A stretch of DNA of 64,000 nt from assembly GCA_963701735.1 (NCBI GenBank), contig CAVPBI010000013.1, positions 141,323 through 205,322 of the forward strand, given 5' to 3'. The first letter of the stretch is position 1. Each line of letters begins with the position of its first letter. Below, one piece after another: positions 2,707 through 27,382 of this stretch. The position numbers were made by a program, and so were the translations under genes. The notes under the pieces are model-generated. The model was not told the DNA's origin, searched no databases, and saw nothing but the letters and a program-made list of their open reading frames with translations. The stretch is from an uncultured Ignavibacteria bacterium. Lineage in GTDB: Bacteria > Bacteroidota > Ignavibacteria > UBA10030 > UBA6906.

Positions 2707-2707
2707 C

Positions 2708-3826: not shown

Positions 3827-6296
3827 TCACCCCCGGTCACAGCGATCTTCGCCCCATTGAGCGAGGCCGCAGTCGGGGTCCCACGGACTCACCACGCTCA
3901 CCGCCGTGGCGTGCCCTTCAAACGAGGAGAGCGTGAGGGAAAGGCTCCGGCCAGCCGTATCCAGCTTCGCTTCATGAAGAACCGCGTTGACTCCATCGAG
4001 GTAGGGGTACCGGACCGGCCCGTGCTCTATCCGGATCGACTGTGCCCCGGAAGCTCCCCGCGGGATCACGCGGGAAGGAACGAGCGCGCCGTCGACCAGG
4101 ATGCGCGCGATCGTCGAGCCGTGCCCGGACACCACGAATTCTTTTCGTGGTCCCACAGACGTAGTCGGCTTCGACATCGTGGAGCGCAGCGGGAAGTCCG
4201 CCGCCGACCGAGACGTTCCATGCGTTCTCGTCAACGCCGATCATCCGATAGGCGGTCCCGATGCAAAATCCGGCCGACCACATCATCGTCGGCTTGTCCA
4301 CCCACCCGTGGTCGTGGGCCTGCGTGTCGGAAAACCGGTACTCGTAGAGTGCTGGCTGGCCGCGCGGGCTTTGCGTGATTCCGTCGACGGTCATCGTACG
4401 CCGGTAGAACGCGAAGGCGGAGTCGAGCTCTCCCACTGCCCTGAGAGCCCATGCATACCAGGCATTCCCCAGGTACCAGACTCCCCCGTTGGCATAGAGG
4501 TATGGGCCGCCCGCTTCGTTCCCCTTCACGTTATAGAACTTCTTGACCGAATCGGTGTGGAAATCCGCCGGCGCCACCGTGCGCACCCCGATCGCAGGAT
4601 CGAGCAGCTCTCGCCGCGCCGTCCCGACAAGGCGTCGGGCCAGGTCTGGTGGGAGCGTCCCGTAGGCCGCGGCCAGCAAGGGACCCATATAGACATGCCG
4701 GTCGCGCAACCCGCCGGTCGTATTATAGAGATACCCTGCCGCGTCGTCCCAGAGTTCGTTGCGCAGACCGGTCTCCAGTTTCGCGGCCACCTGCTCATAG
4801 GCGCGAAGCGCCGGGGCCTTCATGCCGAGCACGGAGCCGAGATACTGATACTCCTCCAGCGCGCGAATCGTGAGGATCGTAAGGTACGCGCGGGTACCCT
4901 CGGCGTGCCCGAAGTCCCACCAGTCAGGCTCGTTCCCCATCATGAGGTTCCCGCGGCGGCGTTTGAGCGTCAGGGCGATGCCTTGTGAAACAACAGGCAT
5001 GAGCTTCGTGACGGTCGCGGTATCAGACGTGTGGCGGAGATACGAGGCGGTGGCAAGGACAAACCAGAGATGGTTCCAGTTTCCGGGGGCGCAGTACTCG
5101 GTGATGAATGCGTCATCCTTCCAGTAGTATGCGTGAGACAGCACACTGTCCCTGGAGAGAGCCAGAAGGTGCAGCAGATCGCGCCTGACGCGCCGGGGAT
5201 CAAAGACGATCGCAGAGAGGTTGGTCAGAAGAATATCGTGGGTGAACATGAAGTTGTATTCTGCCGGGCACGGCATAGGCACGATGGCGCCATCGAGGAA
5301 GTGCTGGTTCGACTCAAGCAGAGCCTTCGAATAGGATACCGCCCTGTCCGTCCACGGATCTCCGCTCCGGAACAGTCCGCGATCTACCGCCGACCGCACG
5401 GCCGAGTCGTAGCGGGCCACCTCTTCGCGCCACGTCGCCCGCAACCGTTCCATCGTTCGATCGATCTCCTCGGGTCCGGTACTGCTGAACAGCTGCGTGA
5501 TCGTCGCCGAGTCGCCCGGCTGAAGCGCCACGCGATACATGAACGCCGCTGCAGCACGGACTCTCCCTCCCGCCGGCGACAGCGTACCGGCCAGCTCCCC
5601 TCCGCCGTCGATCCAGTTCGACCATCCGGTATCCGACAGCGCAAGCGCGGATGCATCTGAAGTCCAGGATGCCGGTTGCAGTCCCGCATTCTGCACCGCG
5701 ACCGAGGCACGGCCGAGTGCGCGCTCATCGAAGGAGGCGACAATGCCATCACCCGTGCTTCGGGTCCGGGCCGAATCGAACCGGGCGTACGTCTGACAGC
5801 TGCGCAGCACGATGGCCGTGTGCGTGTAGACCTCCGCAGTATGGGCGCTCGACCCGGCGTTGTACATCGTGAGCGACATGACGGCAGCGGGCTCGTTCAG
5901 GCAGAAGTCGTAGGCCAGCGTCAGCCTGAGGTCCCCTTCGGTGGCAAAGAAGCGCACGCTGTGCGGCGAGAGCCTGTATCCCCACGGTCGCTTCCCGAGC
6001 CAGGTTCTGGGCCCTTCATCCACCCTGATGCCAATGACGACAGGTCTGGACTCCCCGCGCTTCCAGTAGTCGGTGCTGAGGTCCAGACTGTTGGCCACCG
6101 GGGCGTAGAAGCTCACTCTGGACGGGAGAGGACGGCTGTCATGAAACTCGAGTCCCACGTAGTGACCGCCGACCTCAACCTGTCCATATCCTCTGTCGAA
6201 ATCGACGGCCACCGGATCTTCAGGCTGCGGTGCGGGCTGTTTGCACGCCAGCCCTGCGACCAGCATCAATGCAGCAGTCCACGCGGAGCGTTTCAC
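3827..6296 (-). CDS. lipoprotein, amylo-alpha-1,6-glucosidase/GH63-like six-hairpin glycoside hydrolase; apparent frameshift near 4140-4230
   Basis: 774-aa ORF (lipobox LAGLAC) whose last ~55 aa are Arg-rich low-GC3 junk; real GC3-rich C-terminus continues in ORF 3827-4234 frame (EFVVSGHGSTIARILVDGALVP…); GDE_C-like segment …GGPYLYANGGVWYLGNAWYAWAL…. Confidence 0.6.
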
Positions 6297-6297
6297 G

Positions 6298-7107
6298 TTA
6301 TCCTTTCAGCCCGGTGGACGCAAGGCTCTGAATGAAGGATCGCTGGAAGAACGCGTATGCGATGATCACGGGGAGAGCAAGCAGCGTCGCCGCAGCGAGC
6401 TGCGCACCAAGCTGCGACTCCGCCTCACCGCCGATGGTGAAGATGGTGACGAGCTGCGGCATGGTCATCAACGTCCGCTCGCGCACGACAAGCAGCGGCC
6501 AGAGCACCTCGTTCCAGGATGTCATGAACGTCAGAATGCCCACGGTTGCGATGACCGGACGGGACAATGGCCAGACGACCCGGAAGAGGATCGTGATCTC
6601 GGTTGCTCCGTCGAGCCGGGCGGCGTCAAGCAGGGCCTCCGGAATCGAGAGGAAGAACTGCCGGAACAGGAGAATACTGAAAGCGCTCATGATGGTCGGC
6701 GCGATGAGCCCCATGTACGAGTCCGTCCACCCCAGCGTCACCATCAGGATGTACTGCGGTATCAGCACGATCTGGAACGGGATCATCATCGTGAAGAGGA
6801 TGAGGGCCTGAATCACCGTCGAGCCGGGGAAGCGGAGGCGCGCGAGCGCATACCCGACCATGGACCCGAACAGAACCACGGACCCGGTCGCCACCCCCGA
6901 GACCAGCACACTGTTCAGAAAAGCTCTTCCGATCGGGATCTTGGTGAGGACCAGGTTGTAACTCTTCAGGGAGAACTCATGTGACCAGAGTCCGAGGTCC
7001 GCGAGCTGTGTTTCCGGCTTGAGCGAGGCGGCGACCATCCAGAGAAACGGGTACGCAAACACCACCGCTCCGAGAACAAGAACACCGTATCGAACGGCCG
7101 TTTTCAT
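6298..7107 (-). CDS. carbohydrate ABC transporter permease (MalG/UgpE-like)
   Basis: 269 aa, 6 TM, EAA loop motif (…EAARLDGATEITILFRVVWPL…); 4-nt overlap with upstream permease. Confidence 0.9.
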   Translation of the reverse strand: MKTAVRYGVLVLGAVVFAYPFLWMVAASLKPETQLADLGLWSHEFSLKSYNLVLTKIPIGRAFLNSVLVSGVATGSVVLFGSMVGYALARLRFPGSTVIQALILFTMMIPFQIVLIPQYILMVTLGWTDSYMGLIAPTIMSAFSILLFRQFFLSIPEALLDAARLDGATEITILFRVVWPLSRPVIATVGILTFMTSWNEVLWPLLVVRERTLMTMPQLVTIFTIGGEAESQLGAQLAAATLLALPVIIAYAFFQRSFIQSLASTGLKG

Positions 7108-8009
7108 GAATACGTCTCCTGTTCGATCACGCGGCGCTGCAACAGAACGACCCCGAGGATGATCACCGCGTAGACGACGCCGAGCGTGGCGGCGTACCCC
7201 ATATGGCTGAAGTAGAAACCCTGGTTGTAGATATAGAGCATCCCCGACAGCGTGCTCTGCATGGGACCGCCCCCGGTCAGGACGTACGGCTCGATGAACA
7301 GCGAAAACCCGCCGATCGTCGAGAGGACGATCACAACCATGACGGTAGGATTCAGCATCGGCAGCGTGATCCTGAAGAATTTCGTGGCCGGCGGCGCTCC
7401 GTCGACATCCGCCGCGTCATAGACTTCCTGGGGAATGCTCTGCAGGCCTGCGAGGAACAGCACGATATAGATCCCCACATTCTTCCACGTCGCCATGATC
7501 GCGATGGAAGGCATCGCCAGCCGGGCATCCGTGAGCCACGGAAGCGGATCCGCGCCGAACCACCGGAGCATCACGTTCAGCAGCCCGTTGTCGAACCCGT
7601 ACAGCTGCCGCCAGAGGATGGTCACGACCACTCCGGAGACGACCACCGGCAGAAAATACAGCGCGCGGAAGAACCCCCGCCCGCGGATCTTCCCATTCAA
7701 CAGCATGGCGAAACCCAGGGCGACGACGATCTGCAGCGGAATGTGAATCACGAGGAAGAACAGTGTGTTGACGATCGACTTGAGGAAGAGCGGATCCTGC
7801 ACCAGCCTCCCGAAGTTCTTCAGGCCGATCCATTCCATCGGGGTGACGATATTCCACCGGTGAAACACAAGGATGAGCGAGAAGACCAGCGGATAGGCCA
7901 CGAAGGCCAGGAAGAACAGGACGTACGGCAGGACAAGGCCGTAGGCCGAACGGTTTTGCGGCGAGAGCAGCCCGCGTCCGGTGCGCAGAAGTTTGCTCAT
8001 CGGTTCCAC
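7104..8009 (-). CDS. carbohydrate ABC transporter permease (MalF/UgpA-like)
   Basis: 301 aa multi-TM, …YDAADVDGAPPATKFFRITLPML… EAA motif. Confidence 0.9.
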   Translation of the reverse strand: MEPMSKLLRTGRGLLSPQNRSAYGLVLPYVLFFLAFVAYPLVFSLILVFHRWNIVTPMEWIGLKNFGRLVQDPLFLKSIVNTLFFLVIHIPLQIVVALGFAMLLNGKIRGRGFFRALYFLPVVVSGVVVTILWRQLYGFDNGLLNVMLRWFGADPLPWLTDARLAMPSIAIMATWKNVGIYIVLFLAGLQSIPQEVYDAADVDGAPPATKFFRITLPMLNPTVMVVIVLSTIGGFSLFIEPYVLTGGGPMQSTLSGMLYIYNQGFYFSHMGYAATLGVVYAVIILGVVLLQRRVIEQETYS

Positions 8010-9302
8010 TCCACGATAACCGACGAGGCCCGGAGGAATTCCCGGACCGCCTCATCGGGCCCGATCTTCCCGTACACGCAGCACCGTTCGTACGTCTGCG
8101 AGAGCGTATCGAAGATCTCCTTGAGGTCGGGGGCCGAATCGACACCGCGAGTCAGAAGGGATTGCCGCGCAAATTCCATCATGACGGGATTTCGCTGGAA
8201 GTACCCGGCGAAGAGGGGATTGGCCAGGAGGTCGTTGCGAACCGGGATTTGATCGCACATTTCCAGGAGCTGCAGATCGTGCTCGGCGCGCACCAGAAAG
8301 CGGACGAACTCCCAGGCCGCCTCGGGGTGCCGCGTGGTGCTGAAGATCGAAATATTCTTGAAATCACCGTACGTGTGCACGGGCCCGCGATGCGAGTCCG
8401 GCACCGGAACCGGGGCCACGCCATACTCCATCGACGGGGCGTAGTTCCGGAGCTGGGCCACCTGCCAGGGGCCGGAGAAATGCGTGATCTTCTGCTCCAG
8501 GAGGAACGGGATCCGCGCCTGCGAAGTAGGTGCGCGGGAAGTACCCCTCCGCGTAGCACGACTGGAAGAACGCAAACACGGCGGCCGCCGCGTCCTCGTC
8601 GGCGGAGACCTCACCGTACCGGTAGAGCGTCCTCCCCCCGGAGGCGGCAACGTAGAAGGGATAGAAATCGTAGAGACGCTGCCACCATATCGGCCGGATA
8701 TCGCGCTCTCCCATCCAGACATCAATCTGTCCATCTCCGTTCAGGTCACGCGTCGCCTTCTTTGCCGCATCGAGGTATTCGCTGTATGTGGCTGGAACCC
8801 GCTCGATACCCGCGTCGCGCAGGAGACGGAGATTGACGAACATCATGACAGGGTTGGACTTCCAGGGCAGCTGGTAGAAATGGCCGTCGGGGCTCCGGAA
8901 CGTCTCCAGCAGCGCGGAATCCACGCGGTTGCGCGCAAGCGTGTCAAAGCCGGGGAGTTGATCAAGCGCGATCAGTCCGCCCGCGCGGGTGTAGTCGTAC
9001 AGCGCTCCCGGCTGGATATTGGAGCAGACATCGGGGGTTGTGCCCCCGGCGATCGCCGCGAGCAGGACCTCCTCCGTGGATTGGCTCACGGGAATCGGCT
9101 GCATGCGAACATGGATCTCCGGATGCCGCGCGTTCCAGAGCCGCACGAGCGAATCGGCGAGCCGGACCTCCTGAGGATTGGGCGCGGGCCAGTACGTGAG
9201 CTCAACAGCTTCCGTCCGAGTCGACGCCCGTTCGTCACGCGCGCCGCATCCGGAAAACAGAAGAACAGCCAGGAGCAGTCCGACGCCGCTTCGCGTAGTC
9301 AT
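7997..9302 (-). CDS. sugar ABC transporter substrate-binding lipoprotein; frameshift ~8515-8535
   Basis: N-terminal ORF 8364-9302 (lipobox LLFSGCG, SBP-like) degenerates into junk after …YFAG; C-terminal half continues in ORF 7997-8734 frame from …IPFLLEQKITHFSGPWQV…; junction at ggatcc context. Confidence 0.75.
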
Positions 9303-9303: not shown

Positions 9304-10962
9304 TCACTCCCATGCCTGCCATGCCGGGTCGATTGAAGGGAACGCCGGGTGCGGGAACGTCCCCCCTTTCTTGACGGCGTACAGGTCGATCGTGCGGGGA
9401 TCCTGCGCGGCGTCCACGGGCACCGAGGCCAGCGCCGCGCTATCCACGGACACCTGATAGGTCCGCCGCAGTGCGGTCAGACGCCGGTAGAGTTTCTCCT
9501 GCATCGCATCCGCATACCAGTCGCGAAGCACGTCGTCCTTCGCCTCTTCAAACGTCCGGGAGGCGCCTCCGGTCCCCCGGAAGCGGGCCGGATGCGCCGC
9601 GTGGTGAGCCCGGAGCGTTGAGTCTGACCAGGCGATGCTCTTCGCCGCCACGTCTTTCTCCGCCTGGTAGAGCAGCTTGTGCTGCCACCACCCGGTCTGC
9701 TCCACCACGCTCGGCCGCTTCTGCAACCCACGCGCGCTCGCGCGCTGGACGAGAACGTGGTCGCGCACCATTCTCCAGACGATGTCCTCAAGCGAGAGAA
9801 AGAACGACTGGGGCGAGGTCCATTGAAGGGACACAAGAGCCTCGCGGGGCTCGTACCACGCAAGGAAAGCGCCCAGAGCGATGTTCTCCTGCCGCGTCAC
9901 CACGAGCGTGCTGTCCGCATACAGGCGGATGTTCTTGTAGTCGACAGAGTCCCCCTCCGCCCTGAATCTCCCGGCAAGCCCAAACGCCTCGAACCGTTCC
10001 GGCGAGAGCCGTCTGGAGCCGATCCAGGCCCGCAGAATGTCGAATGTCCGCCGCTGAATGACGGGGTCGGCATCCAGCATCATCAAGCGGACATACTCTC
10101 CGGAAAGAGAATCCGCCTTCATCTGAGTGAGCGCCCGCCGCGCGGAGAGCCGGAGCTCAGCGTCATCGGATTCTGTAACGACAGGGCGCCGATGGACTGA
10201 GTCCACCTGCACGATATACCAGCCGTCAGGCGCCGCTACGGGTGACGAGGGAACACGGACGGGGAGATCCCCGACAACCGACGCAAGGGCGGCATTCTGG
10301 CGCGCGAGTCGAAAGCGCGAGGTGGTGGACATCCTGTCCTCTTTGGGAACGCGGCCGCCGGCGAGATGCGCGGAGAACAGTGAATCAAAGCTCCCGCCGG
10401 CTCTGAGCCCGGCGTCAGCGCGCCCGGCTTCCCCGGCCGCCGGAAAAAACAACCAGCGCAGCGAAACCGTCTCCTGTTCCTCGGCGACGGCACGGTCGAT
10501 CTCGCTGTCGGTGACGTTGACACCGCTCAGGACATCGTCGCGGTACAGCTCTTCTGTCGCGAAGTCCCCTTCAAGCTGCACCAGCGCCGATGTGACCCTC
10601 GGGTCCGCCTCGAGGCCCCGTTCCTTCGCCCCCAGCGCAAGCAGCTTCTCGTTGACCATGAAGTCGAGGTAGCGGCGACGGGAGTCCGATCCCCTCTTCG
10701 GGAACGCCGGCCCGAAGATATAGCTGAAGAAGAATTCCCGCGCGGTGATCTTCAGGGGGCCGACGCGCACGATCACGGCATCGGGGTTCCGGAGCGAATC
10801 GAGGAGGGGCACGACGTCGCTGCGAGGGGGTTCAATCTCCTGCGCATGGCCGGGAGCCGCCGCGACCGCAACCATCATCCCGGCGAGGAGCACGATTGGC
10901 CACGCGGACCGTGGGACGCGCACCTGATGTCCTTCCGCGTCTGCCGGAGACGCGGGTCTCAA
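9304..10962 (-). CDS. hypothetical periplasmic protein (possible SurA-N-like chaperone domain)
   Basis: 552 aa with signal peptide (…IVLLAGMMVAVAAAPGHAQE); no confident catalytic motif; 4-nt overlap with PorV-like gene. Confidence 0.45.
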   Translation of the reverse strand: MRPASPADAEGHQVRVPRSAWPIVLLAGMMVAVAAAPGHAQEIEPPRSDVVPLLDSLRNPDAVIVRVGPLKITAREFFFSYIFGPAFPKRGSDSRRRYLDFMVNEKLLALGAKERGLEADPRVTSALVQLEGDFATEELYRDDVLSGVNVTDSEIDRAVAEEQETVSLRWLFFPAAGEAGRADAGLRAGGSFDSLFSAHLAGGRVPKEDRMSTTSRFRLARQNAALASVVGDLPVRVPSSPVAAPDGWYIVQVDSVHRRPVVTESDDAELRLSARRALTQMKADSLSGEYVRLMMLDADPVIQRRTFDILRAWIGSRRLSPERFEAFGLAGRFRAEGDSVDYKNIRLYADSTLVVTRQENIALGAFLAWYEPREALVSLQWTSPQSFFLSLEDIVWRMVRDHVLVQRASARGLQKRPSVVEQTGWWQHKLLYQAEKDVAAKSIAWSDSTLRAHHAAHPARFRGTGGASRTFEEAKDDVLRDWYADAMQEKLYRRLTALRRTYQVSVDSAALASVPVDAAQDPRTIDLYAVKKGGTFPHPAFPSIDPAWQAWE

Positions 10963-11999
10963 AACCTTATGCTCAGGGATAGGGTGTGGACCGCATTCAA
11001 TCGCCCCATATCACGGTACGCGTAATCGACCTGAAAGACCGTCGTGGTCGAGAAGAGCGCGGACGATGCCACGCCGAGTCCCGCCGAAAGCCCGCCTTCG
11101 CTTTCCGCCAGGAAGAGCGAATGGTACCCTGCGCGGACGAACAGGAACTCCTGAAACGCGAACTCCGTGCCCAGGTTCACGCTTTCGTAGTTGTCAGACT
11201 GATGGATCGCATCGGCCGCGATGGTCCACCGGTACTCGTCATCCCGAACAGGAGCAAACGACAGGCCCAGCTGGAAGAGCAGCGGGAGGTCCCACGATTG
11301 CACCTCGAGCGTGTACGGAATCTGGTCGTTCGAGCCGAGCTTTGTCGGGTCGACGCGGATGAACTGCCGCATGTCGCGCCCCTCGAGCTGCATGTCCGTC
11401 CCGAAGTTGGAGAGCGCAGCCCCGATCACCAGGCCTCCCAGGAGGTCGGTCCTGAACATGGTCCCCAGGTCGAAGGCAAATGCGGTCGCGGTCTCGTGCC
11501 ATATCGTCTGTTGAACGTACTTCGCAGTGACACCGACGGTAAACCTGTCGCTCAGGCGACGGGAATACGAAAGCCCTGCGGCGATGTCGGAAGCGCTGAA
11601 ATACTCGCCGGTGCCTTCAGGGAGCTCGATGGTCCTCACCTTCATGTCCCCCATCCCGAGCGCGGTGAAGGTAACGCCGATCGTTCCAAAATCTCCCATC
11701 GGCACAACCAGCGCGGCAAAGTCAAAGCGGGTATCGGCAATCCACTCCATGTGGGATACCAGAAGCTGCGTGTTCTCCTGGAACGCGGCTCCCGCAGCGT
11801 TCCAGTAGAGCGCGCTGGCATCGTTCGCGAGACTGACGAAGGCGCCGCCCATTCCTATCGCGGCCGCGCCGACGGGAATCTCCAGAAAGGGAGCCGCGAC
11901 AGTCCCTGCCTTGGAGACGCTCTGGGCCCGTGCAGCACACGGCGCCAGGAGCGCCAGGACCATGACGGGCACAAATCGGTGTGCATGCATGGCTGTCAC
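10959..11999 (-). CDS. PorV/PorQ-family outer-membrane beta-barrel (T9SS-associated)
   Basis: 346 aa; signal peptide; hallmark N-terminal motif …PVGAAAIGMGGAFVSLANDASALYWNAAGAA… as in PorV (GARAxAMGGAFxAxADDxSAxYWNPAGLA); ends …SLSIRF. Confidence 0.7.
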   Translation of the reverse strand: MTAMHAHRFVPVMVLALLAPCAARAQSVSKAGTVAAPFLEIPVGAAAIGMGGAFVSLANDASALYWNAAGAAFQENTQLLVSHMEWIADTRFDFAALVVPMGDFGTIGVTFTALGMGDMKVRTIELPEGTGEYFSASDIAAGLSYSRRLSDRFTVGVTAKYVQQTIWHETATAFAFDLGTMFRTDLLGGLVIGAALSNFGTDMQLEGRDMRQFIRVDPTKLGSNDQIPYTLEVQSWDLPLLFQLGLSFAPVRDDEYRWTIAADAIHQSDNYESVNLGTEFAFQEFLFVRAGYHSLFLAESEGGLSAGLGVASSALFSTTTVFQVDYAYRDMGRLNAVHTLSLSIRF

Positions 12000-12000: not shown

Positions 12001-15000
12001 TCACTTCAGGACTGCGAATTTGCCGATGGTCGTCCCCACTCCCTCGGCGTCGACATGGAAGACGTACACCCCGTACGCGATATCCAGTCCGTCTCTGGAG
12101 ACAAGATTCCATGCCTCTTCTCCATCATCGGTGGTGGACTCGTGCTTCAGGGTCTGTACGAGCCGGCCGGCAATCGTATAGATGCGGATCTCGCATTTCC
12201 GGGGGAGGTGGATGAAGTACACCCGCCGCACTCCGCGTCCCGTTGATGTCGTCGCCGGCTCCCATGAGGCGGCCCCCGGGTACGGGTTCGGGACCACCGC
12301 GACCTTGTTGAGATCCTGCTGCGCCATCCCGGCATCATAGCCGGGCGCCTCGCTCTGGACCGCAACCGACTCGTTGGTGCGGAACGGCTTCCGCGTGACG
12401 ATCCGGTACACGTCGCCGACGGCGGGAGGCCGCTGATCTTCCTCGGCCAGCAGCGTGTCCTTGAAGAACGCCAGCGACCACGTGAAGCGGGCTTTGGAGA
12501 ATGACGTCGCAGGCTTGCCGGCCGAGTCGCCGACGGCGATGAAGATCGCTTCGTCGTAGTCCAGAGTCGCATTCGCGTTCTCGTCAAAGAACACGAGCGC
12601 CATGCTGTCCTTCCCCTCGGTCAGATTCTTGATGATCACATTCGAAGGGTTGGGCTGCGAAAATGATGACTTCGGAAGGGCCAGTGTCCCCATTCCCGGC
12701 TCGGTGAACGTGATCTCAAAGTCCGCAGGGTAGTCAACGCGGCGGATCGCGAGCGCTCCCTGCCCGTAGGTCGAATTGAATCCCGCCTCGGTCTTGTACG
12801 TCGTGCTTCCCTTCACCCACTCCGTCTTCTCGCGGTCAATGACGACATCGGGGTCGTTCTGAATTGTGATGCTGAAGCCGTCAAGGACGGGCGTGACAAC
12901 CCGCGGCGACGGCATCCGCACGGGGTAAATCAGCGTGTCTCCCGTCGTCATATCGATGAGCATGTACAGGGGATCCGGCGCGTCGTGGTATGCGGTGGAA
13001 TCGATGAAGGAGACCGCATACGTATGGTTGTCCATCAGCGAGTCCGGATCCAGAATCAACGCCGTCACCGTCCCCGTGCCGGGCCCGGTCGCAGCCACCT
13101 GCTTGAGCTGAGCGTCGACATACCCGAGCGCAGGAACGCGCGGTGTCACCGCAGCGGTGTTGACGTCGGTCTTGACCTTACCATTGATGTCCACCTTGAT
13201 GATGCTGGTGCATTCGGACGGCGGAATGCCGATGAATTCCCCCTCGACGGTCGTCGTGGTGAAACCCTGGTCGTATGACACGACCGCATAGTAGTACGTC
13301 TGCCCGTTCTGCACGGTCGAGTCGATGAAGGAATGCTCCAGTCCGCTGTCGTCGCCGAGATTGAACATCGCGCCGTTCACGTTGATGGGATGCAGCCCCA
13401 TCACCCCGTCCACGACATCGAACTGCGCGATCGGCTTGCGGTAGGTCGATTTCCCATACGCGTCCGTGATGACCTTGTTTTCGAGGAAGTTCGGCTCGGT
13501 GCTGCGGTAGACCCGGTACCCCTCGAAGTTGTACTTCTGGTAGAACTGGTCGAAGGTGCGCTCCGCCCTGTCGTCCCAGTACAGCGTAATCTTCCGGTCT
13601 CCCTCGATCGCCTTGACCGTCGGCTTTTCGGGAGGCTTCGCGAACCGGTAGTTGGCGTTGTAGATCTGCTGTACCGTTCTCTTCCGCCGGAACAGGTCGT
13701 CCGTATCCATCCCGAACAGGAGCGACATGGAGAAGCGCTCCGTCTCTCCGGTCTCTTCGATGCGGCCCGTTGACGCCGAATACGAGGTCTTCCCGAGGAG
13801 CGTGAAGAGATAGCTGGAGAAATGGTTTGCAAGGTTGACCCCGACCAACTCTCCGCCGCGCGGCGGCGGGAGGGCCGACAGCGCCTGCCAGTTGCGCTCG
13901 TCATTGTTCAGGTCGTACGTGTGGACCGCGGAGATGAGGAATCCCGTCAAACCCAGCTGGTCCGATTCGTCCTTGTCCAGTGCGCCGAAATTCGGCTCAC
14001 CCTGGTCGGGGCGGCCGTTCCCCTCCGAGCCGTCCGGGTCCGGGCCCGCGTAGCCTTCGTCAAACGGTCCATCCCGTCGATCCCGACATCATCGTCCAGA
14101 GGTTCGCCGGTTTCCCATACGCCGTTGGCGTTCAGGTCCACGAACGGACGCCAGTTGCAGTTCTCGTCCGCATCCCAGTGCGGGCGCCAGGGCCGTCCAT
14201 AATAGAGGTGGAATTGTGCGGTGTCCCTTACCACGTCCCGCAGGAACGGGTCGCTGCCCGGATCGGTGACAAACCGTGTTGGGAGATTATCGCGCCGCTC
14301 ATCGGTTAGGCCGTCGATGTCGTTGTCGCGGAGGTCGTCCGGCACGCCGGGGCTCTCGAGAAACGCATAGCCGGAAAGTCCGACGGGACTCCAGTTGCCC
14401 GGACTCCCCGTCGGGACCGTCGACCACGCGTACGAGATGTTCAGGAGCTTGTCGTAATCTCCCGCATTGTTCGAGGAATTGTCATGCCCGCCGATTCCCC
14501 AGTCGACATACTCCGCAAAGAGCGCCTTCTGGTAGTCGGTCGTGGTCATGTTCGTGATCTCGTAGTGCCAGAAGATCACGTCCTCGGCGAGCACCTGCGA
14601 CCATTGGAATCCGCGGGCCCGTACCTGCATACCAAGACCGCCGCGCGAGGTGTCGTCCCGATCGGGGCGGTAGTTGTACCGGAGAAGATATTCGCGGTCT
14701 TCATCGTCGTCATACACGAAGAACGTCTCCAGGTCCGCGTTCTGCACCCCTTTCCCGAAGTAGCCGTTCCACCTGCCATCCCAGTCCGCCGGCCGGTCGG
14801 GCCAGTGGTCCGGCCAGGTCAGATCATCGTTGCTCACGGCCGGACTCGGCTGGAATCTCGCGGCATAGCCGGGTATGGGCCACCAGCCGTACGTCACACC
14901 CGTCGACCGGTCGTACCGCGTGTACTCGTAGTAGTTCGTCTCAAGGGGATGGAACACGAGGTTGTTCGATGGGTTCGCCGGATCGGGCGCATACGCCTCG

Positions 15001-15282
15001 GCCTGCACGATCATCGCCACACCGTCGACGTACGTGTGGTTGGTTCCTTTGGGCCAGACCCCGCTCCTTGATGGCTCATTGAGCCAGTCGCCCACTTCGC
15101 CGAAATTGTAGTAGACGGTCCCCACAAGGTTCCCGTCCATGAACCCCTTTCTTGGTCTCCTGGTGGTTCCCTTTGTTCTTGTCCACAATGAGCTGGCCCC
15201 GGACACTCCCCAGGGTGACAGAACAAAGCGCAAGCACCAGAGCGATTCGCGTAGCGTGATGTGGCGCGCAGCGCATCGTCAC
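12001..15282 (-). CDS. large (>1000 aa) secreted protein with T9SS C-terminal sorting domain; two frameshifts (~14000-14070, ~15130-15170)
   Basis: Signal peptide ORF 15076-15282 (MTMRCAPHHATRIALVLALCSVTLG) -> 13947-15233 -> 12001-13950, each junction marked by Arg-rich junk tails; C-terminus …VAVVPNPYPGA…RRVYFIHLPRKCEIRIYTIAGRLV…GVYVFHV…KFAVLK typical of Por_Secre_tail. Confidence 0.7.
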
Positions 15283-15300: not shown

Positions 15301-17998
15301 TTAGAAACCTACCGACATGCCAACGACCACCTGACGCGGTGCGGAATAGAAATCCGGACGCGCGTAGTACTCTGCCAGCGTGTTCACGCCCCGGGGCTCC
15401 TCCTGGGCGCGCGTAAGCTCAAGCGTGTATCCCGCTCTCCCCGTATCACCGTACACCTCGAGCTCGCTTGCCGTGTCGAACACGTTGTAGACCTTCAAGA
15501 ACACCGACATGTTCACCGCGCCAAGCTGAAGTACTTCGTCAGATACAGATCCATATTGAAGTATGACGGCCGGTTGTCGCTGTTCTCCAGTCCGGTCCGC
15601 TGGTTCTGGAGCGAGGGCGTGTAGGGAAGGCCGGACCCGTACCGGGCAATCGCGCTTGCGATGAAATCGTCGGGCGTGCCGACCATGATCGTCGCGTTGA
15701 GCGCGTGCCGGCGATCCCAGTCCAGCGGCACGAGGACCTTGTTCCCCTCGATCGGCGGCGAGGCCTGGGCGTTGTTGAAGTCGTTCTCCGGGTCGGAGGC
15801 ATCGCCCTTGGCGTCCTGGTACGTGTAGTCCACGGTTCCACCGAATCCGTCCGACATCCGCTTCTCGACCGAGAGGGTAATCCCCCGAACCGCGCCGTAG
15901 TCCCGGTTAACGTACATCCCGTACTTCTTGAAATCGTTCTTGATGTGCACCTCGATGCCGAGCAGATTCCTGATGTCTTTGTAGTAGCCTGTCAGCGTGA
16001 ACCCGATCGTGGGCGTCAGCTCCTGCTGGAGGCCGATCTCCATCATCGTCGTCCGCTGCGGTTCAAGGTTCGCGTTGCCGATCGTGTTCCCGATGAACTC
16101 GGGGTAGTTTCCCGTGAGGGGAATGCGGAAGTTCGGGTTCTTGTAGAGGTACTCGAACGGCGGGATCTGGAAGAAATGGCCGTAGGAGAGGTGCACCGCT
16201 CCGCGATCGGTGATCGGATAGGAGATGCCGATGCGGGGACTCACCTGGGCCTTCACATCCGCCGCAGCGAAGAGGGACCCGCTGTACGGGGGCGACATGT
16301 TGTCCAGAGCGGAAATACTGTCGGGATCCAGCAGATACATGCCGTCCGGCTGGAAGTAGTCCAACCGCGCGCCGATGTTCACGACGAGATAGTCGAGCTC
16401 GATCTTGTCCTGGACGTATGCGGACAGCTGATACGGGTTGTTGGAGTACACATTGTGATCGAAGTTTCCCGGCGGGAGGGACATAGGGCACGAAGCCGCT
16501 CGCCGCGTCGACGTGAACCTGGTAATCCTCATAGTCGAGCGTGTGGTACTTCCCCTCGACGCCACCCTTGATCTGGTGAATCGTCGTCACCTGCGATGTC
16601 AGGTCTGCGCGTCCGGTCCACGTGGTTGTCTTGTGGTAGAAATGCCAGTTCTCCGTTCCGCCCGTGAGAAACGCGTTGGCGCCGGCATCCTGCATCCGCT
16701 CGGGTTTCACATACCGGGGGTCCAGCGGGTTCTTATACACGTATTGCTGATAATCGCTCACAAATGCCGAGGCCGTGGCGTCAATAAACGACGACGCCTC
16801 GAACACGTGCGTGTAGCTGCCGCTCAGAAGATAGCTGTCGAGATGTCGCTCGTAGTCGCCGTCGGGGTTGAGCCGGAACGCATGATTGTACGTGCGGTAG
16901 TCGTTCGTCTGGTACAGGCCGTTCAGCGTGATCCCCTTGCCGGGCCCCACGCCGATCTGCAGCTTGCCCTGCAGCGTCCATCGACGGGCGTCATTCATGG
17001 GCACGCTCGCGCCGTCCCCGGTCGAGCCGACATACCAGTCCGCAGAGTCGTTGGCCGAAAAATTCGAAGAGTCGGGAGGGTTGAACGTCCTCTCGCCGTA
17101 GATGTAGCCCTCATCGCTCAGATACCGGCCGGAGGCGAAGAACTTGAGGATGCCGTCGGTGCCCGGGATGGGTCCGCTCAGGCTCGCCTGGACATTTGTG
17201 ACGTTCGAGTAGAGGTCGGGAAGGAAACCCGAGGAACTTCTCGGGTGGTCGATATGCGAACAGCTCCGTCCGGTCCGTCATGTATCCGCCGACGTACCCG
17301 GAGACTTCGCCCGTGAACGATTCGCCCGCGATCTTGGTGATCTGATTGACAACGCCGGACATCGCCTCCCCGTACTCGGCGTTGAACGTCCCGCTGAGCA
17401 CCTGGATCTCGGCGATGCTGTTCACCTCGGCCTGCATGGTGTATCCGCCCGAGAACACGTCGTTCACCGACACGCCGTCGATCAGATACTTCACCTCATC
17501 CGATCGCCCGCCGCGAAAATGTCCATTGATCACACCCGCCTGGAGGTTGACGACGGCAGAGACATCCTCGAGAGGAAGCGCCTGCAGTTCGTCGCCGCTC
17601 ACCGACGCGGTCGTGGATGTCAGGTCCTTCTGAACCATCGGGCGCGTCGCCGTCACGACGACGTCCTCGATCTCCACGGTCTCCGGCTTGAGGGAGAACG
17701 GGACACGCGTCGTCTGATCGGCGGTCACCCGCACGGCAGTCACCGTGACCGGACTGTACCCGACGGCTGACGCCTTGACGCCGTACGTCCCCGGAGGGAT
17801 ATTGAGGATGAAATAATCCCCTTCAATATCGGAACTCGCTCCCAGCGTCGTTCCGACCAGCATAACGTTCACGCCCACAAGCGGCTCGCCGGTCTGCGCG
17901 TCGAGGACCTTCCCGGCCACCTTCCCGGTCGTCCCCGCATGCGCACAGGTCATGGCAACGACAACGAGCCCCAGAATGATGGCACCCGCAGTCCGCAT
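15301..17998 (-). CDS. TonB-dependent receptor with N-terminal carboxypeptidase-regulatory-like domain; fragmented by ~3 frameshifts
   Basis: Pieces 17111-18061 (signal, CarbPepD_reg, plug: …VTATRPMVQKDL…GDELQALPLEDVSAVVNLQAGV…), 16063-17004, 15513-16565, 15301-15516 (C-terminal …GMSVGF TonB-receptor terminus) are colinear on one strand with junk tails at junctions. Confidence 0.75.
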
Positions 17999-18068
17999 GG
18001 TGACTCTCCTGTGCTTCAAACAACAGGCGAGGGGCTGCCGTCTGAAGGCAGCCCCTCGCACCAGGAAA

Positions 18069-21000
18069 TTACTTCACGAACACCATCTTGTTCACCATCG
18101 CATGATCACCCGCCGTCAGGCGGTAGAGATACATGCCTGAACCAACGGCATGGCCCTGATCATCGTGACCGTCCCAGGTGACCGTGTACCGGCCCGCGGA
18201 CGCATAGCCACGAGCCAGCTCACGCACCTGCCGTCCGAGCATGTCGTAGACTACGAGCGTGACCTCCCCGTTCCGGGGGACGCCATAGCTGATGGTCGTC
18301 GACGGATTGAAGGGGTTCGGATAGTTCTGCCCCAGCTCGTAGACAGTGGGCACTTCAGCATTCGGATCACGGACCGCAGTGGTCGAGCCGATGACTTCAA
18401 TCGTCACATCGTCCCAGTAGATCGTCCCGGTGAACCGGGAATACACGTGCAGACGGACTTCCAGCACGCTTCGCGCCGGCAGGCACGGTGACGTCCAGCG
18501 TGTACGGCGTCCAGTCAAAGGACGTCGCCGCCGGGAACTGCCACGTGAAGTCGTTCGCCTGAATCACGTCGTACCCGTCGTTGTTCCCGCCCTTGGCGAA
18601 CCACAGCGGCGTCAACCCCACCGACCACGTCCCAGGATACAGCGCCGCAGAATCGGGCACCAGGTTCGACCCCTTCAGCCAGACCGTCAGCCTGAGGATC
18701 GTACCCTCTACGATCGTTGGATCGAGCTCAACGCGCCGCATGCCCACGAACCCATCCTGGGTTTCACGGTCGAACGGCAGGTCGAACTTCAGCGACTTCA
18801 GCCCGCTGTGCGCCGCTTCCGTCGTCACCACCGTGTTCTCGTACCCCTTCGTCAGCTCGCCGTCATTCCCTCCGATCGGCGGCATCCAGTAGTACCAGCC
18901 CGTCGGGTACTCCAGGTTCGAGCCCCAGTGCTGGCCGGCCCACACGCCCGCACGACCGTAGGAACATCACGTCGTCCACCCACACCGTCCCCGTCGCATT
19001 CTTCCCCGCCACGAACTTGATGATCGTCGTGTACGAGTCCTTCGGCAGGATCACGTCGCCCGGACTGTTCGTGTCAGCCACGAACGCCCCCGTCGACGCC
19101 ACCGACTGTGGAATCGGCAGCTGGAACGTCCCGATCGGCGCCCCGAGATCATCGTAGAACTCCCACGCCATATACCACTTCGCATCTTCCGTCGCCGGGT
19201 TCACGTTCACGCCCTCGGTCCGCACCCAGGCCCCAAGGAAGATGTCCACGTTCTTCGAGTGCGTCGGCGACCAGATGTCGCACATGTTGTCCGATACCCA
19301 CGCCGAGCTGTCGCCCGTCGTCGCCTTCTCGATCTTCATCGAGCGCAACCCCGAACGGTGCTGATCTGTCGCCCAGCTCAGCGTCGCTCCGCCTGTGTTC
19401 CCCATGTTCCAGAACGCCGGCAACGTCCCCTCGAAGCCGCCGATCTCCGTGATCTGCCGGAACATCCAGCTTCTCCACCGTCAGATCGTCCCAGTAGATC
19501 GTCCCGGTGAACCGCGAATACATGTGCAGACGGACCTCCAGCACCTTCGCCAGCGCCGGCACCGTCACGTCCAGCGTGTACGGCGTCCAGTCAAAGGACG
19601 TCGCCGCCGGGAACTGCCACGTGAAGTCGTTCGCCTGGATCACGTCGTACCCGTCGTTGTTCCCGCCCTTGGCGAACCACAGCGGCGTCAACCCCACCGA
19701 CCACGTCCCCGGATACAATCGCCGCTGAATCCGGCACCAGGTTCGACCCCTTCAACCAGACCGTCAACCGGAGATGATCGCCTTCCGTTACGCCGGCCAG
19801 CTTCGTGATGTCCACCGGCTTGTTGAGCTCCATCGTTCCGCCCGGATCGAGGACCACCCTCCGGGCACCCACGAAGCCGTCCTGGGTTTCACGGTCGAAC
19901 GGCAGGTCGAACTTCAGCGACTTCAGCCCGCTGTGCGCCGCTTCCGTCGTCACCACCGTGTTCTGGTACCCCTTCGTCAGCTCGCCGTCATTCCCTCCGA
20001 TCGGCGGCATCCAGTAGTACCAGCCCGTCGGGTACTCCAGGTTCGAGCCCCAGTGCTGGCCGGCCCACACTCCGCACGACCGTAGAACATCACGTCGTCC
20101 ACCCACACCGTCCCCGTCGCGTTCTTCCCCGCCACGAACTTGATGATCGTCGTGTACGAGTCCTTCGGCAGGATCACGTCGCCCGGACTGTTCGTGTCAG
20201 CCACGAACGCCCCCGTCGACGCCACCGACTGAGGAATCGGCAGCTGGAACGTCCCGATCGGCGCCCCCAGATCATCGTAGAACTCCCACGCCATATACCA
20301 CTTCGCGTCTTCCGTCGCAGGGTTCACGTTCACGCCCTCGGTCCGCACCCAGGCCCCAAGGAAGATGTCCACGTTCTTCGAGTGCGTCGGCGACCAGATG
20401 TCGCACATGTTGTCCGATACCCACGCCGAGCTGTCGCCCGTCGTCGCCTTCTCGATCTTCATCGAGCGCAACCCCGAACGGTGCTGATCTGTCGCCCAGC
20501 TCAGCGTCGCTCCGCCTGTGTTCCCCATGTTCCAGAACGCCGGCAACGTCCCCTCGAATCCGCCGATCTCCGTGATCTGCCGGAACATCCAGCTTCTCCA
20601 CCGTCAGATCGTCCCAGTAGATCGTCCCGGTGAACCGCGAATACATGTGCAGACGGACCTCCAGCACCTTCGCCAGCGCCGGCACCGTCACATCCAGCGT
20701 GTACGGCGTCCAGTCAAAGGACGTCGCCGCCGGGAACTGCCACGTGAAGTCGTTCGCCTGGATCACGTCGTACCCGTCGTTGTTCCCGCCCTTGGCGAAC
20801 CACAGCGGCGTCAACCCCACCGACCACGTCCCCGGATACAATCGCCGCTGAATCCGGCACCAGGTTCGACCCCTTCAACCAGACCGTCAACCGGAGATGG
20901 TCGCCTTCTTTGATGTCGCCGCCCAGACTGCTGAGGGACACCCTGCGTCCGCCCACGAAGCCATCCTGGGTTTCACGGTCGAACGGCAGGTCGAACTTCA

Positions 21001-21742
21001 GCGACTTCAGCCCGCTGTGCGCCGCTTCCGTCGTCACCACCGTGTTCTGGTACCCCTTCGTCAGCTCGCCGTCATTCCCTCCGATCGGCGGCATCCAGTA
21101 GTACCAGCCCGTCGGGTACTCCAGGTTCGAGCCCCAGTGCTGGCCGGCCCACACGCCCGCACGACCGTAGAACATCACGTCGTCCACCCACACCGTCCCC
21201 GTCGCGTTCTTCCCCGCCACGAACTTGATGATCGTCGTGTACGAGTCCTTCGGCAGGATCACGTCGCCCGGATTGTTCGTGTCCGCCACGAACGCCCCCG
21301 TCGACGCCACCGACTGAGGAATCGGCAGCTGGAACGTCCCGATCGGCGCCCCGAGATCATCATAGAACTCCCACGCCATATACCACTTCGCATCTTCCGT
21401 CGCCGGGTTCACGTTCACGCCCTCTGTCCGTACCCATGCCCCCAGGAAGATGTCCACGTTCTTCGAGTGCGTCGGCGACCAGATGTCGCACATGTTGTCC
21501 GATACCCACGCCGAGCTGTCGCCCGTCGTCGTCTTCTCGATCTTCATCGAGCGCAACCCCGAACGGTGCTGGTCTGTCGCCCAGCTCAGCGTCGCTCCGC
21601 CGGTGTTCCCCATGTTCCAGAACGCCGGCAACGTCCCCTCGAATCCGCCGATCTGGTTGATGTTCGGTGTCTGCGCAAATGCCGTGGCGACACCGCCGAC
21701 GGCAAGGATGCAGAGAAGCAGTACTGTGTTACGCCATCGCAT
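18069..21742 (-). CDS. T9SS-sorted multi-CBM protein: signal peptide + three tandem units each with two CBM4/9-like modules + T9SS CTD; fragmented into >=8 ORFs
   Basis: Start MRWRNTVLLLCILAVGGVATAFAQ; module A (…IGGFEGTLPAFWN…HRSGLRSMKIEK…GTVWVDDVMF) and module B (…WAGQHWGSN…AHSGLKSLKFDL…GTIYWDDLTV) match CBM_4_9 pattern (GGFE, G..SLK, aromatic-x-DD-hydrophobic end); final ORF 18069-18518 ends …YPNPFNPSTTISY…GMYLYRLTAGDHAMVNKMVFVK (T9SS CTD). Confidence 0.65.
18398..21660 (-). repeat. three near-identical ~1123-bp direct tandem repeats (period 20588->19465) coding for the CBM pairs
   Basis: Long stretches identical between 18.5-19.5, 19.6-20.6 and 20.7-21.7 kb (e.g. gtcccggtgaaccgcgaatacatgtgcagacggacctccagcac… present 2x verbatim); MFRQITEIGGFEG unit starts at 20588 and 19465. 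Confidence 0.85.
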
Positions 21743-21785: not shown

Positions 21786-22844
21786 CTAGCTGCTTGAGAG
21801 AACTGCCTCCCCGGCACGAACCGGAGAGATATGACTGCCAGTGGACTCACGCACGATCAGTTCGACTGGAACATGCGTTGTCGTGACATGCGTGGTTCCG
21901 TTGACGATGATACTGGCAAGCTGTTCGACCGCATGGCGCCCGAGCTCCTCCTTGCGCACACGCACCGTCGTGAGGTGGGGCTGCACAAGGACGCTGGCGT
22001 CAACATCGTCGAATCCGACAACAGCAATGTCGCCAGGAATTCGGAGCCCGGCCTTCCGGATCTCCTGCATGCAGCCAAAGGCCATCGGGTCGTTGGCGGC
22101 AAAGACAGCCGTGGGCAGCGGCCGCCGTGCAAGGAGCCGGGCCATTGCGCGGGCGCCGCAGGGCGAACTGGATTCAGGTTCGGACATCTCGATGAACGAC
22201 TCGGGTGGCGTGATGCCGCACTCCGCAAGCGCTTCACGGTAGCCCTGGAATCGCTCGGCGATACTCGGATGGTCGACATCGCCGCCGACGAAGGCGATCT
22301 CGCGATGTCCAAGGGAGACCAGGTGCGTCACCGCCGCCCGGGCCCCGCCCAGATTGTCGATCAGCACGGCGGGATACCGCCGGCGCTTGACCTCAAAATC
22401 GACGAGCAGGACCGGAAGGCCGAAGCGCTCGATACGATCCAGAAGGTTGAGATCGACCTTCCCGGCGATGATCACTCCATCGACATTCCGTTCGTGGAGG
22501 AATCGCGGCAAATCGTCTTTCGTGAACCGTACAGGGACGGTGGTGAGAAGCAGGTAGTACTTGAGGTCGCGGGCGGCAACCTCGGCACCGATGAACACCC
22601 TGCTGTAGAACTGCTCCGCCAGATAGAAGCGATCATCGCGCAGGATGAACCCAATGTTGCCGCTGGTCTTCGAAGCAAGGCCGCGCGCCGAGCGCGTAGG
22701 GTGGTAGCCAAGGTCCTCGACGACCTTCAGGACATGCTGCCGCATCTCCTCGCTCACATACCCCCGGTTGTTGACAACAAGGGAAACCGTAGAGAGCGAA
22801 CAACGGGCAGTTCGCGCGACGTCTTTGATTGAAGGCCGCTTCAC
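21786..22844 (-). CDS. LacI-family transcriptional regulator
   Basis: HTH …VKRPSIKDVARTARCSLSTVSLVVNN… then periplasmic-binding-fold sugar sensor; likely GTG start 22842-22844 with AGGTGA RBS; 43 nt upstream of and co-directional with the CBM-array gene. Confidence 0.85.
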   Translation of the reverse strand: MKRPSIKDVARTARCSLSTVSLVVNNRGYVSEEMRQHVLKVVEDLGYHPTRSARGLASKTSGNIGFILRDDRFYLAEQFYSRVFIGAEVAARDLKYYLLLTTVPVRFTKDDLPRFLHERNVDGVIIAGKVDLNLLDRIERFGLPVLLVDFEVKRRRYPAVLIDNLGGARAAVTHLVSLGHREIAFVGGDVDHPSIAERFQGYREALAECGITPPESFIEMSEPESSSPCGARAMARLLARRPLPTAVFAANDPMAFGCMQEIRKAGLRIPGDIAVVGFDDVDASVLVQPHLTTVRVRKEELGRHAVEQLASIIVNGTTHVTTTHVPVELIVRESTGSHISPVRAGEAVLSSS

Positions 22845-26363: not shown

Positions 26364-27287
26364 TCAGCGCGTCAAGACCGCCCGTATGATCGCGACATCG
26401 TTCCCGGCACGCAGCCGGATAAGGTACACGCCGCTCGCCAGCCCGGCCGCATTGAAGTACGCCGTGTGCGCGCCCGCCGCAAGTGTTGCATCAACGACGG
26501 TTGCGAGTTCCTCCCCGAGGATATTATGCACCGTCAGCCGGACGGAACCGGGCCCGGGCACGCTGAACCTGATCGTGTCGTCCCTGGGTTAAACGGATTG
26601 GGATACGCCCCAAGGAGCTGGAACCGGGAAGGAGGAAGACTGCCGACCGAAACATCTGTGACCGAACTGACCAGGATCGTTCCGTACGTCAGGCCGTCCT
26701 CGCCGACAAAGACCCCTCCCGATGATTCCGTGCCATAACCGGACGCGGAAACAGTCACTGCATAACTCCCCGACGGCACGAGCGAGCCGTAGCGACCCTG
26801 AGACCCCCGTGACGACATTCCATTCCTGGGCACCCGACACAAGCCTGACCTCGGCCCCGGCCAGCGGAGTCAACACACCGGAGACTCTGTCCCTCCCGAG
26901 CACCTGGCCGCTCACCTCGGTCGAGTCGCCCCCGCCGCCTCCGCCGCCTCCCGACGAAGCCGTGTCAGGCTCCAGGACGATGTCGAACGTGTAGCTGCCG
27001 ACGCCGATAGCGTCGTACCGGAAATAGTACGGCTTGTACCCGGGCTTCCCCGCCATGACGACATAGATCTCGTTCCCCGTCACGATATCAGCGATAGCGT
27101 ACTCTCCGCTCGCCCCTGACGTGTCAGGGTAGGCAATCGAATCCGGCAGGAGTACATGGAGCGTGACAAGCGCATCGGCGATCGGCTGCGACGTCGACCG
27201 GTCTACAACCGTTCCGCTGAGCGAACCCGCCAGCATCAGGCATGGCACCATCACCAGCACCGCAAGTACCGCCAGTACGTTCTTCAT
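26364..27287 (-). CDS. secreted protein with two carboxypeptidase-regulatory-like domains and T9SS C-terminal sorting domain; two frameshifts
   Basis: MKNVLAVLAVLVMVPCLMLAGS signal; …GTVVDRSTSQPIADALVTL… and …VSGQVLGRDRVSGVLTPLAGAEVRLVSG… (ORF 26589-27350) -> …YAVTVSASGYGTESSGGVFV…YPNPFNPGTT (26534-26842) -> …LTVHNILGEELATVVDATL…GVYLIRLRAGNDVAIIRAVLTR (26364-26561). Confidence 0.65.
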
Positions 27288-27382
27288 ATCTCCCTCTCCC
27301 TCAGGGTCGCCGGGAATGCGGCCGGACAGACTCTGGCGTTGGTTGAACATCCGTGACTATGGTGTACGCTCGTCCTTCTTCC

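Follow-up and report, generated by a model that had tools for sequence, protein, structure and literature searches.

A Three-Unit Gene for a Predicted T9SS Surface Protein With CBM-Like Modules Beside a SusD-Less TonB-Dependent Transporter in an Uncultured Ignavibacteria Bacterium

Results and Discussion

Repeat Structure and Reading Frame of the Gene

This analysis concerns a repeat-containing gene on the minus strand of contig CAVPBI010000013.1 from an uncultured Ignavibacteria bacterium, of which a stretch of 64,000 nucleotides (positions 141,323 to 205,322) was analyzed and is called the window in the following, with positions counted from its first letter. The gene starts with an ATG at 21742, ends with the last stop-codon base at 18069 and is located between the genes of a LacI-family regulator and a TonB-dependent transporter (TBDT, Table 1). 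An earlier reading of the same letters (the original prediction) had proposed for exactly these borders a tandem triplication of a unit with two carbohydrate-binding modules (CBMs), A and B, in a cargo protein of the type IX secretion system (T9SS). The peptide motifs quoted for both modules were found in the minus-strand translation, as were a signal peptide at the N-terminus and a T9SS domain at the C-terminus.

A repeat search revealed five families of direct repeats with three copies each (91-99% identity), with start-to-start spacings of 1123/1085, 1125/1084 and 1076-1077/1123 nt. Self-comparison using blastn aligned 20908-19868 with 19785-18743 (98.7% identity over 1043 nt, offset 1123), unit 1 with unit 2 (96.5% over 736 nt) and unit 1 with unit 3 (94% over 1058 nt). 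The three ~1.1-kb direct repeats are real, and with 92-99% between units their identity is far above chance level. Tandem Repeats Finder reported no tandem repeat, because its maximum period of 500 nt is below the length of the unit. The uniform period of 1123 bp that had been proposed did not hold, as this distance separates units 2 and 3 and units 1 and 2 are ~1085 nt apart, a difference that is due to the indels and to a module-B loop whose length varies without a change of frame.

The assumption of an intact gene had to be abandoned. No single open reading frame (ORF) in the ORF list spans 18069-21742; instead there is a chain of overlapping frames of 150-380 aa, and the six-frame translation follows the frame order 0-1-2-1-2-0-1-2. 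Using a three-way nucleotide alignment of the units we located seven single-base indels, which the original prediction had overlooked. Insertions at 20842 and at the equivalent position 19719 both occur in GCGGCG[A]TTG, and those at the two unit junctions (20580 and 19457) both in GTTCCG[G]CAG, whereas the remaining three (-1 after 20071, +1 at 18962 and +1 at 18468) are unique to one unit. The seven corrections yield a protein of 1222 aa with zero internal stops and unit boundaries at aa 30-390, 391-764 and 765-1122, and they bring back residues that are conserved in intact homologs, namely PDSAALYPGTWSVGLTPLWFAK, DDVMFYGRAG and EKLDVPQITEIGGFEG. The dN/dS ratio is 0.22-0.27 between the units and 0.18-0.27 in comparison with orthologs.

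Further breaks became visible in tblastn searches with proteins of intact relatives. Three frame changes were found in the adjacent TBDT gene, at least one in the gene of the ~1091-aa protein downstream of it and two in a PMT_2 glycosyltransferase gene (23900-25422), whereas the genes of the LacI regulator, the PorV-like protein and a 538-aa protein are unbroken. The gene of a solute-binding protein (SBP) is split by at least one break, with the C-terminal part in frame at 8000-8740 and the N-terminal part in another frame, and a T9SS gene near 26576 is also split. The single-base breaks cluster between 12000 and 26700 of the window, and one possible cause of such clustering is low coverage, or a mixture of strains, at a surface-protein locus that varies. 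In an independently assembled and likewise fragmented contig of a relative (L002, ERZ25039603 contig_9311) the repeat gene and the TBDT gene are also broken (L002:12100-16500), but at other positions and with the junction of units 1 and 2 in frame.

Pseudogene decay in bacteria is biased toward deletions, whereas insertions outnumber deletions 10:3 in the window and 6:0 in L002. Because of this insertion-rich spectrum and the lack of nonsense mutations, and because the corrections restore conserved residues at a dN/dS of about 0.2, we attribute the seven frameshifts to indel errors in the consensus of an assembly that is error-prone and probably based on long reads. Several observations weigh against this interpretation and would fit a real pseudogene, either of the repeat gene or perhaps of the entire operon in a decaying glycan-uptake locus: seven frameshifts fall within 3.7 kb, the genes of the TBDT, the 1091-aa protein and the SBP in the same operon are broken too, the breaks are concentrated at 12-26 kb, long genes elsewhere in the window (a 977-aa GH3 fusion, 915 aa and 846 aa) are intact, and the excess of insertions is only of marginal significance (p = 0.09). 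Moreover, two of the frameshifts are common to units, as expected if gene conversion had copied a mutated tract, and L002 is broken in the same two genes. Decay is, however, difficult to reconcile with the absence of internal stop codons or larger deletions, with the recovery of conserved residues by every single correction, with the different positions of the breaks in L002 and with the damage to unrelated genes beyond the operon (PMT_2 and the T9SS gene near 26576), and together with the low dN/dS and the dominance of insertions this makes a pseudogene improbable in our opinion.

Programmed frameshifting was also considered, as units 1 and 2 have two sites in common whose positions correspond exactly, and one of these coincides with the junction, where recoding could take place. 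All database homologs are single-frame through these sites, including the junction (EKLDVPQIT/EKLDIPTIT), and the L002 junction is in frame with breaks elsewhere, which rules out this mechanism for all practical purposes; the other three sites are unique, and unrelated genes are broken as well. An ORF that is stitched by eye in this contig thus conceals many assembly indels and, therefore, any gene call from the contig needs frame-aware handling.

Module Identity and Protein Architecture

The corrected protein starts with a signal peptide and ends with a T9SS type A C-terminal sorting domain (CTD), whose TIGR04183 score (Table 1) bears out the proposed assignment as T9SS cargo. In Pfam the same domain reaches 38.5 bits for FlgD_ig and 21.9 bits for Por_Secre_tail, and NCBI lists the ortholog P0002 as a 'T9SS type A sorting domain-containing protein'. 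A conserved lipobox cysteine was found neither in the protein nor in the compared homologs. T9SS-related genes visible in the window comprise a PorV/PorQ-family gene and two further genes with a T9SS CTD, whereas the core components SprA and PorKLMN lie outside the window. In agreement with the original prediction, there is no catalytic domain in the protein or in ~120 close homologs.

The assignment of the modules to CBM_4_9 was upheld in part, as the fold is of the CBM type but direct membership by hidden Markov model (HMM) falls below the thresholds. The units of the corrected 1222-aa protein gave no Pfam match at E <= 0.1, including CBM_4_9, CBM9_1 and any other CBM model, and the HMM comparison that had been suggested as a check on the CBM assignment thus came out negative. 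Likewise, NCBIfam gave no match on the modules, and PDB sequences compared with the family profile matched at E <= 10 only the CTD (PorU CTD and FlgD Ig). As the Pfam, NCBIfam and PDB sequence searches were empty, the link to CBMs was drawn from structure and from an exhaustive profile search. In the structural model the unit is predicted to form a beta-jelly-roll that can be superimposed on CBM4 and CBM22, and the best structural matches are all true CBMs; Foldseek also matched the surface glycan-binding protein BtSGBP-B (7kwb, E 1e-9). A distant homology also links module A to module B (hhalign, E 1.6e-4 over 130 columns), and the units contain many near-invariant Trp residues (in unit numbering W13, W25, W50, W59, W91 and W156 in module A, and W174, W187, W259 and W315 in module B).

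For the profile search a unit-only profile was compared with 1.84 billion representatives, which gave 236 matching proteins at E <= 0.001. The most distant significant matches carry true Pfam CBM_4_9 domains, among them a PL8 lyase of 3228 aa and several T9SS proteins. Four CBM_4_9 proteins (P0375, P0383, P0384 and P0387) reached library-wide E values of 1e-9 to 1e-7, and the unit-profile matches overlap the CBM_4_9 domains collinearly, N-terminal to N-terminal and C-terminal to C-terminal. Divergent members of the family come up to CBM_4_9 on module B (P0326 with 26.9 bits at a cutoff of 25.9, P0296 with 22.7 bits). We conclude that the modules are divergent jelly-rolls of the CBM4/9/22 superfamily, which form their own unannotated sequence family.

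A CBM-like fold does not have to bind glycans, and the protein could instead serve in adhesion at the surface, as a spacer or as a structural partner for T9SS components or the TBDT. The missing CBM HMM match of the window modules speaks for this possibility and against glycan binding, and so does the fact that the jelly-roll fold is common to protein-binding domains like the gingipain K1 adhesin, MAM or the ephrin ligand-binding domain. Nevertheless, only true CBMs are found among the leading structural matches, CBM_4_9 (with the copies in the PL8 lyase) is the nearest outgroup by sequence, one member of the family contains a CBM20 domain, and the operon around the gene serves sugar uptake, with genes for LacI, a sugar SBP, permeases and a glycosidase-like protein. 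Taken together, we consider a role without glycan binding rather unlikely.

A Small Family Under Concerted Evolution

The corrected protein has 163 database relatives, which carry only the names 'T9SS type A sorting domain-containing protein' or 'hypothetical' and originate from Ignavibacteriae, Melioribacteraceae, Kryptonia, KSB1 and Bacteroidota metagenome-assembled genomes (MAGs). The best matches are intact three-unit proteins (P0001, 74% identity, 1227 aa; P0002, 71%, 1223 aa), and among the matches listed 35 proteins have three and 86 have two units. Intact homologs of both sizes are widespread in Ignavibacteriota, Kryptonia and KSB1. According to the unit-only profile search the family is small and closed, with members of one, two, three and about four units. 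Variants of differing length exist (P0312, 640 aa; P0250, 1524 aa; P0244, 510 aa); one member has about four units, several have a single unit, and one joins the module pair to a CBM20 starch-binding domain. A profile search of genome contigs was dominated by the generic NYPNPFNP pattern of the CTD and recovered only three distant loci.

Units of the same protein are 69-100% identical (per-protein maximum, median 88%), whereas the proteins are about 50-60% identical to each other. For 150 of 241 units the nearest neighbor lies in the same protein, and in 57 of 106 proteins the units group together in a clade of their own. When close relatives are compared, orthology by position can still be recognized, and it is the middle unit that distinguishes three-unit from two-unit forms. 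This pattern is the signature of ongoing concerted evolution and copy-number turnover across the family, in which gene conversion or unequal recombination would keep the units near-identical. As the units are homogenized within each protein, their near-identity does not imply a single recent triplication, and the very recent amplification, one of three explanations put forward in the original prediction, gives way to a family-wide process; three copies are also the number found in the nearest relatives.

The chief difference between the units is the module-B loop between DGFVG and LRLTVWLK, and the pattern of a short loop in unit 1 and a long one in unit 2 is found in the window as well as in several three-unit homologs. 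The 98.7%-identical tract is bounded by this loop, which therefore partly escapes homogenization. The family is a clear case from nature of 1.1-kb intragenic repeats that evolve in concert, apart from a loop specific to the position of the unit.

The count of three could also result from collapse or expansion of the 1.1-kb repeat during assembly, which would be compatible with a functional gene. Units with 94-99% identity over more than 1 kb are beyond short-read resolution, and the assembly is demonstrably error-prone. But the closest intact relatives (P0001, P0002 and P0003-P0008) have exactly three units, and in the window the three are told apart by their module-B loops, which follow the short-then-long pattern of units 1 and 2 seen elsewhere, so we regard a wrong count as unlikely. 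Genuine family members with one, two or about four units exist, so that other counts are biologically possible.

Gene Neighborhood

The context described before, with LacI upstream, the TonB receptor downstream and then an SBP, two ABC permeases and glycosidase-like genes, was confirmed (Table 1). Further along the minus strand follow a Zn-dependent alcohol dehydrogenase and a YPO2471-like protein, which is possibly an uncharacterized glycosidase at the distal end of the operon, judging from sequence similarity. The core comprises, in this order, LacI, the repeat protein, the ~895-aa TBDT, the ~1080-aa protein, the PorV/Q-like barrel and the ~530-aa protein, with SBP/ABC genes or a glycosidase after them. 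The same order has been retained in an Ignavibacteriae MAG (L001, all genes intact), Melioribacteraceae (L003), Kryptonia (L004) and KSB1 (L005).

The intact orthologous TBDTs score 54-69 bits against the SusC/RagA model TIGR04056, far below its cutoff of 368, and no SusD-family Pfam match was found in the operon of the window or in five related loci. Therefore, the locus is not a canonical polysaccharide utilization locus (PUL). The GC-rich hairpin between the repeat gene and the TBDT gene is a possible attenuator or terminator by its sequence; as an attenuator it may shift expression in favor of the binding protein over the transporter. The short intergenic regions did not contain a palindrome of the LacI operator type. 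The pair of a PorV/PorQ-family barrel and a ~500-550-aa weakly SurA/PPIase-like protein occurs twice in L001 (1-2526 and 19760-22437), each time beside T9SS-type surface proteins, and looks like a recurrent locus-specific T9SS accessory module.

Table 1. Features of the repeat gene, its operon and other parts of the window (PPIase, peptidyl-prolyl isomerase; SPI, signal peptidase I).
Feature	Position	Strand	Remarks
Conceptual coding sequence, three-unit T9SS protein	18069..21742	-	1222 aa after 7 frameshift corrections; 74% identical full-length to intact 1227-aa P0001
Signal peptide (MRWRNTVLLLCILAVGGVATAFA/Q), SPI type, without lipobox	21671..21742	-	Read by eye from translation
Unit 1 (A1 + B1)	20570..21654	-	+1 at 20842; +1 at unit 1/unit 2 junction 20580
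Unit 2 (A2 + B2, long module-B loop)	19447..20569	-	-1 after 20071; +1 at 19719; +1 at junction 19457
Unit 3 (A3 + B3, short loop)	18402..19446	-	+1 at 18962; +1 at 18468
Module-B loops, units 3, 2, 1	18709-18760, 19786-19880, 20909-20960		About 15, 31, 18 aa
T9SS type A C-terminal sorting domain	18081..18323	-	TIGR04183 40.7 bits vs cutoff 23
LacI-family regulator, intact, directly upstream of repeat gene	21789..22844	-	Pfam LacI + Peripla_BP_3; collinear, in one frame with L001/L002 orthologs
GC-rich hairpin, followed by T-rich stretch CTGTTGTTTG	18027..18059	-	16-nt arms, 94% complementary; between repeat-gene stop and TBDT ATG (17998)
TonB-dependent transporter (CarboxypepD_reg + Plug + barrel), directly downstream	15304..17998	-	3 frame changes
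Conserved ~1090-aa protein, signal peptide, PorZ/PorU-like C-terminal domain	12004..15254	-	At least 1 frame change
PorV/PorQ-family outer-membrane barrel, intact	10962..11990	-	NF033709 214 bits vs cutoff 90
~540-aa protein, weak SurA/PPIase-like matches, intact	9307..10926	-	
Sugar ABC importer: SBP + two permeases	6301..9300	-	Synteny in L001/L003
(alpha/alpha)6 glycosidase/phosphorylase-like protein	3975..6305	-	Weak GDE_C and GH94 similarity; orthologous position in L004
YPO2471-like protein (7tem)	1273-2724	-	252 bits, E 8e-74; weak GH9-type (alpha/alpha)6 signal
Second TBDT locus	26367-32671	-	
TBDT with CarboxypepD_reg, second locus	29866-32358	-	Downstream: 164-aa and 629-aa ORFs (no Pfam match), CarboxypepD_reg-containing ORF
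T9SS type A CTD, second TBDT locus	26367-26698	-	Split over two frames
GH3 N- and C-terminal domains fused to beta-lactamase/transpeptidase-like domain	50919-53849	-	Intact, 977 aa; not of this operon
Further T9SS type A CTD	59266-59643	-	TIGR04183 25.1 bits; end of gene with overlapping frames (58748-59955)

Proposed Function and Comparison With Known Systems

Based on the conserved repeat structure, the predicted fold and the gene context, we think it probable that the locus encodes, as a live gene in the organism, a multivalent and non-catalytic surface glycan-binding protein that feeds the adjacent SusD-less TBDT, and that the frameshifts are artefactual. Among the structural genes of a LacI-controlled operon, which is conserved in Ignavibacteriota-like lineages of the Fibrobacterota-Chlorobiota-Bacteroidota (FCB) group, the repeat gene would be the first. 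After Sec export the protein would be translocated by the T9SS and displayed at the cell surface, where the three ~370-aa A+B pairs could provide up to six jelly-roll sites that hold poly- or oligosaccharide near the TBDT. Oligosaccharides would then cross the TBDT and be taken up by the SBP and the ABC importer, and in the cytoplasm the sugars would be processed and the repression by LacI relieved. The CBM20 domain in one family member together with the GDE_C-like gene of the operon is a thin hint at an alpha-glucan as substrate.

The closest module type are the CBM4/CBM9/CBM22 jelly-rolls (PF02018), represented by CBM4-2 of Rhodothermus marinus Xyn10A (4bj0) and by CBM22-1/CBM22-2 of Paenibacillus Xyn10C (4xup). 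In contrast to these, the window modules stay under all Pfam and NCBIfam thresholds, are not attached to a catalytic domain, which also sets them apart from the CAZy definition of a CBM, and are arranged in the family as A+B pairs in one to four repeats that are homogenized within each protein. The porphyran-binding CBM of a Bacteroidota protein with a T9SS CTD (8xmz) belongs to a different CBM family.

By analogy, a role like that of SusE/SusF or of the surface glycan-binding protein SGBP-B, in a locus without SusD, appears most likely. Like these, the protein is predicted to be a non-catalytic multi-domain beta-sandwich protein at the surface, and its gene lies beside a TBDT in a substrate-regulated sugar-uptake locus, but the protein would be anchored by a T9SS type A CTD and not by a lipid. 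Further differences from PULs of Bacteroidota are a TBDT that is not of the SusC/RagA type and lacks SusD, LacI as regulator and an ABC importer for the inner-membrane step.

A similar combination is known from Xanthomonas and Caulobacter, for which Blanvillain and coworkers reportedly described in 2007 carbohydrate utilization loci containing TBDTs (CUT loci). In these loci SusD is likewise absent, and the TBDT is accompanied by a regulator of the LacI type, a transporter of the inner membrane and glycosidases. All of these elements were found in the window from 22844 to 3975 on the minus strand (LacI, TBDT, SBP with two permeases and the GDE_C/GH94-like protein, although the glycosidase assignment is weak). 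CUT loci are not known to contain a T9SS-displayed multi-CBM protein, a PorV/PorQ-like barrel or a ~1080-aa T9SS-like partner.

The closest published functional analog that we found is the SusD-less cluster chu_1276-1280 of Cytophaga hutchinsonii, which contains the SGBP-B-like, bimodular and CBM-like protein CHU_1279 (PMC12016534). CHU_1279 is located at the outer surface, acts together with components for uptake across the outer membrane and is required for growth on a polysaccharide, cellulose (PMC12016534). No sequence relationship was detected, although no direct comparison was made; furthermore, CHU_1279 has a single A+B-like pair instead of tandem homogenized units, and the phylum differs. 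Our literature search found nothing relevant on T9SS, TBDTs or PULs in Ignavibacteria or Melioribacter. The locus is an ordinary, though probably assembly-damaged, member of a conserved family that has not been described so far.

An additional point is the conserved ~1080-aa protein encoded downstream of the TBDT, which shows no Pfam, NCBIfam or PDB sequence match. Its family (window 12004-15254, minus strand; L002:16506-19781; P0121-P0240) has more than 4498 matches, with identities still at 65-85% at rank 120, and its distribution by far exceeds that of the repeat protein. The ~1080-aa protein carries a signal peptide, and its C-terminal domain (VVPNPY...) is weakly similar to PorZ. The AlphaFold2 model is poor (pLDDT 50, with the N-terminal 700 residues below 50), and its confident C-terminal third best matches PorZ and PorU, although with low TM-scores. 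PorZ and PorU are the two T9SS components whose CTD is retained and for which the PorQ and PorV barrels serve as docking sites. As the adjoining gene of the locus encodes a PorV/PorQ-family barrel, tethering of surface proteins beside the TBDT is suggested.

It is tempting to combine these observations into a conserved, previously undescribed machine for glycan capture at the outer membrane, present in Ignavibacteriota, Kryptonia, KSB1 and Calditrichia, in which a non-SusC TBDT and two T9SS-type surface proteins, tethered by a PorV/PorQ-family barrel and assisted by a SurA-like chaperone, would functionally replace SusC/SusD; we put this forward tentatively and with considerable doubt. Such a T9SS-coupled alternative to SusC/SusD is a possible lead and not a finding.

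Outer-membrane glycan capture is known mainly from the SusC/SusD system of Bacteroidia, whereas Ignavibacteria-like lineages, which degrade polymers and are abundant in bioreactors as well as in soils and sediments, lack the SusC/SusD pair at this locus. If the proposed function is correct, a homogenized multi-CBM protein displayed by the T9SS beside a generic TBDT would represent an alternative design for this step and, in addition, would provide a new CBM-like sequence family for annotation.

Other Features of the Window

Apart from the operon, the window contains a second TBDT locus, whose T9SS type A CTD is split over two frames, an intact GH3 fusion gene that does not belong to the operon and a further T9SS type A CTD at the end of a gene with overlapping frames (Table 1).

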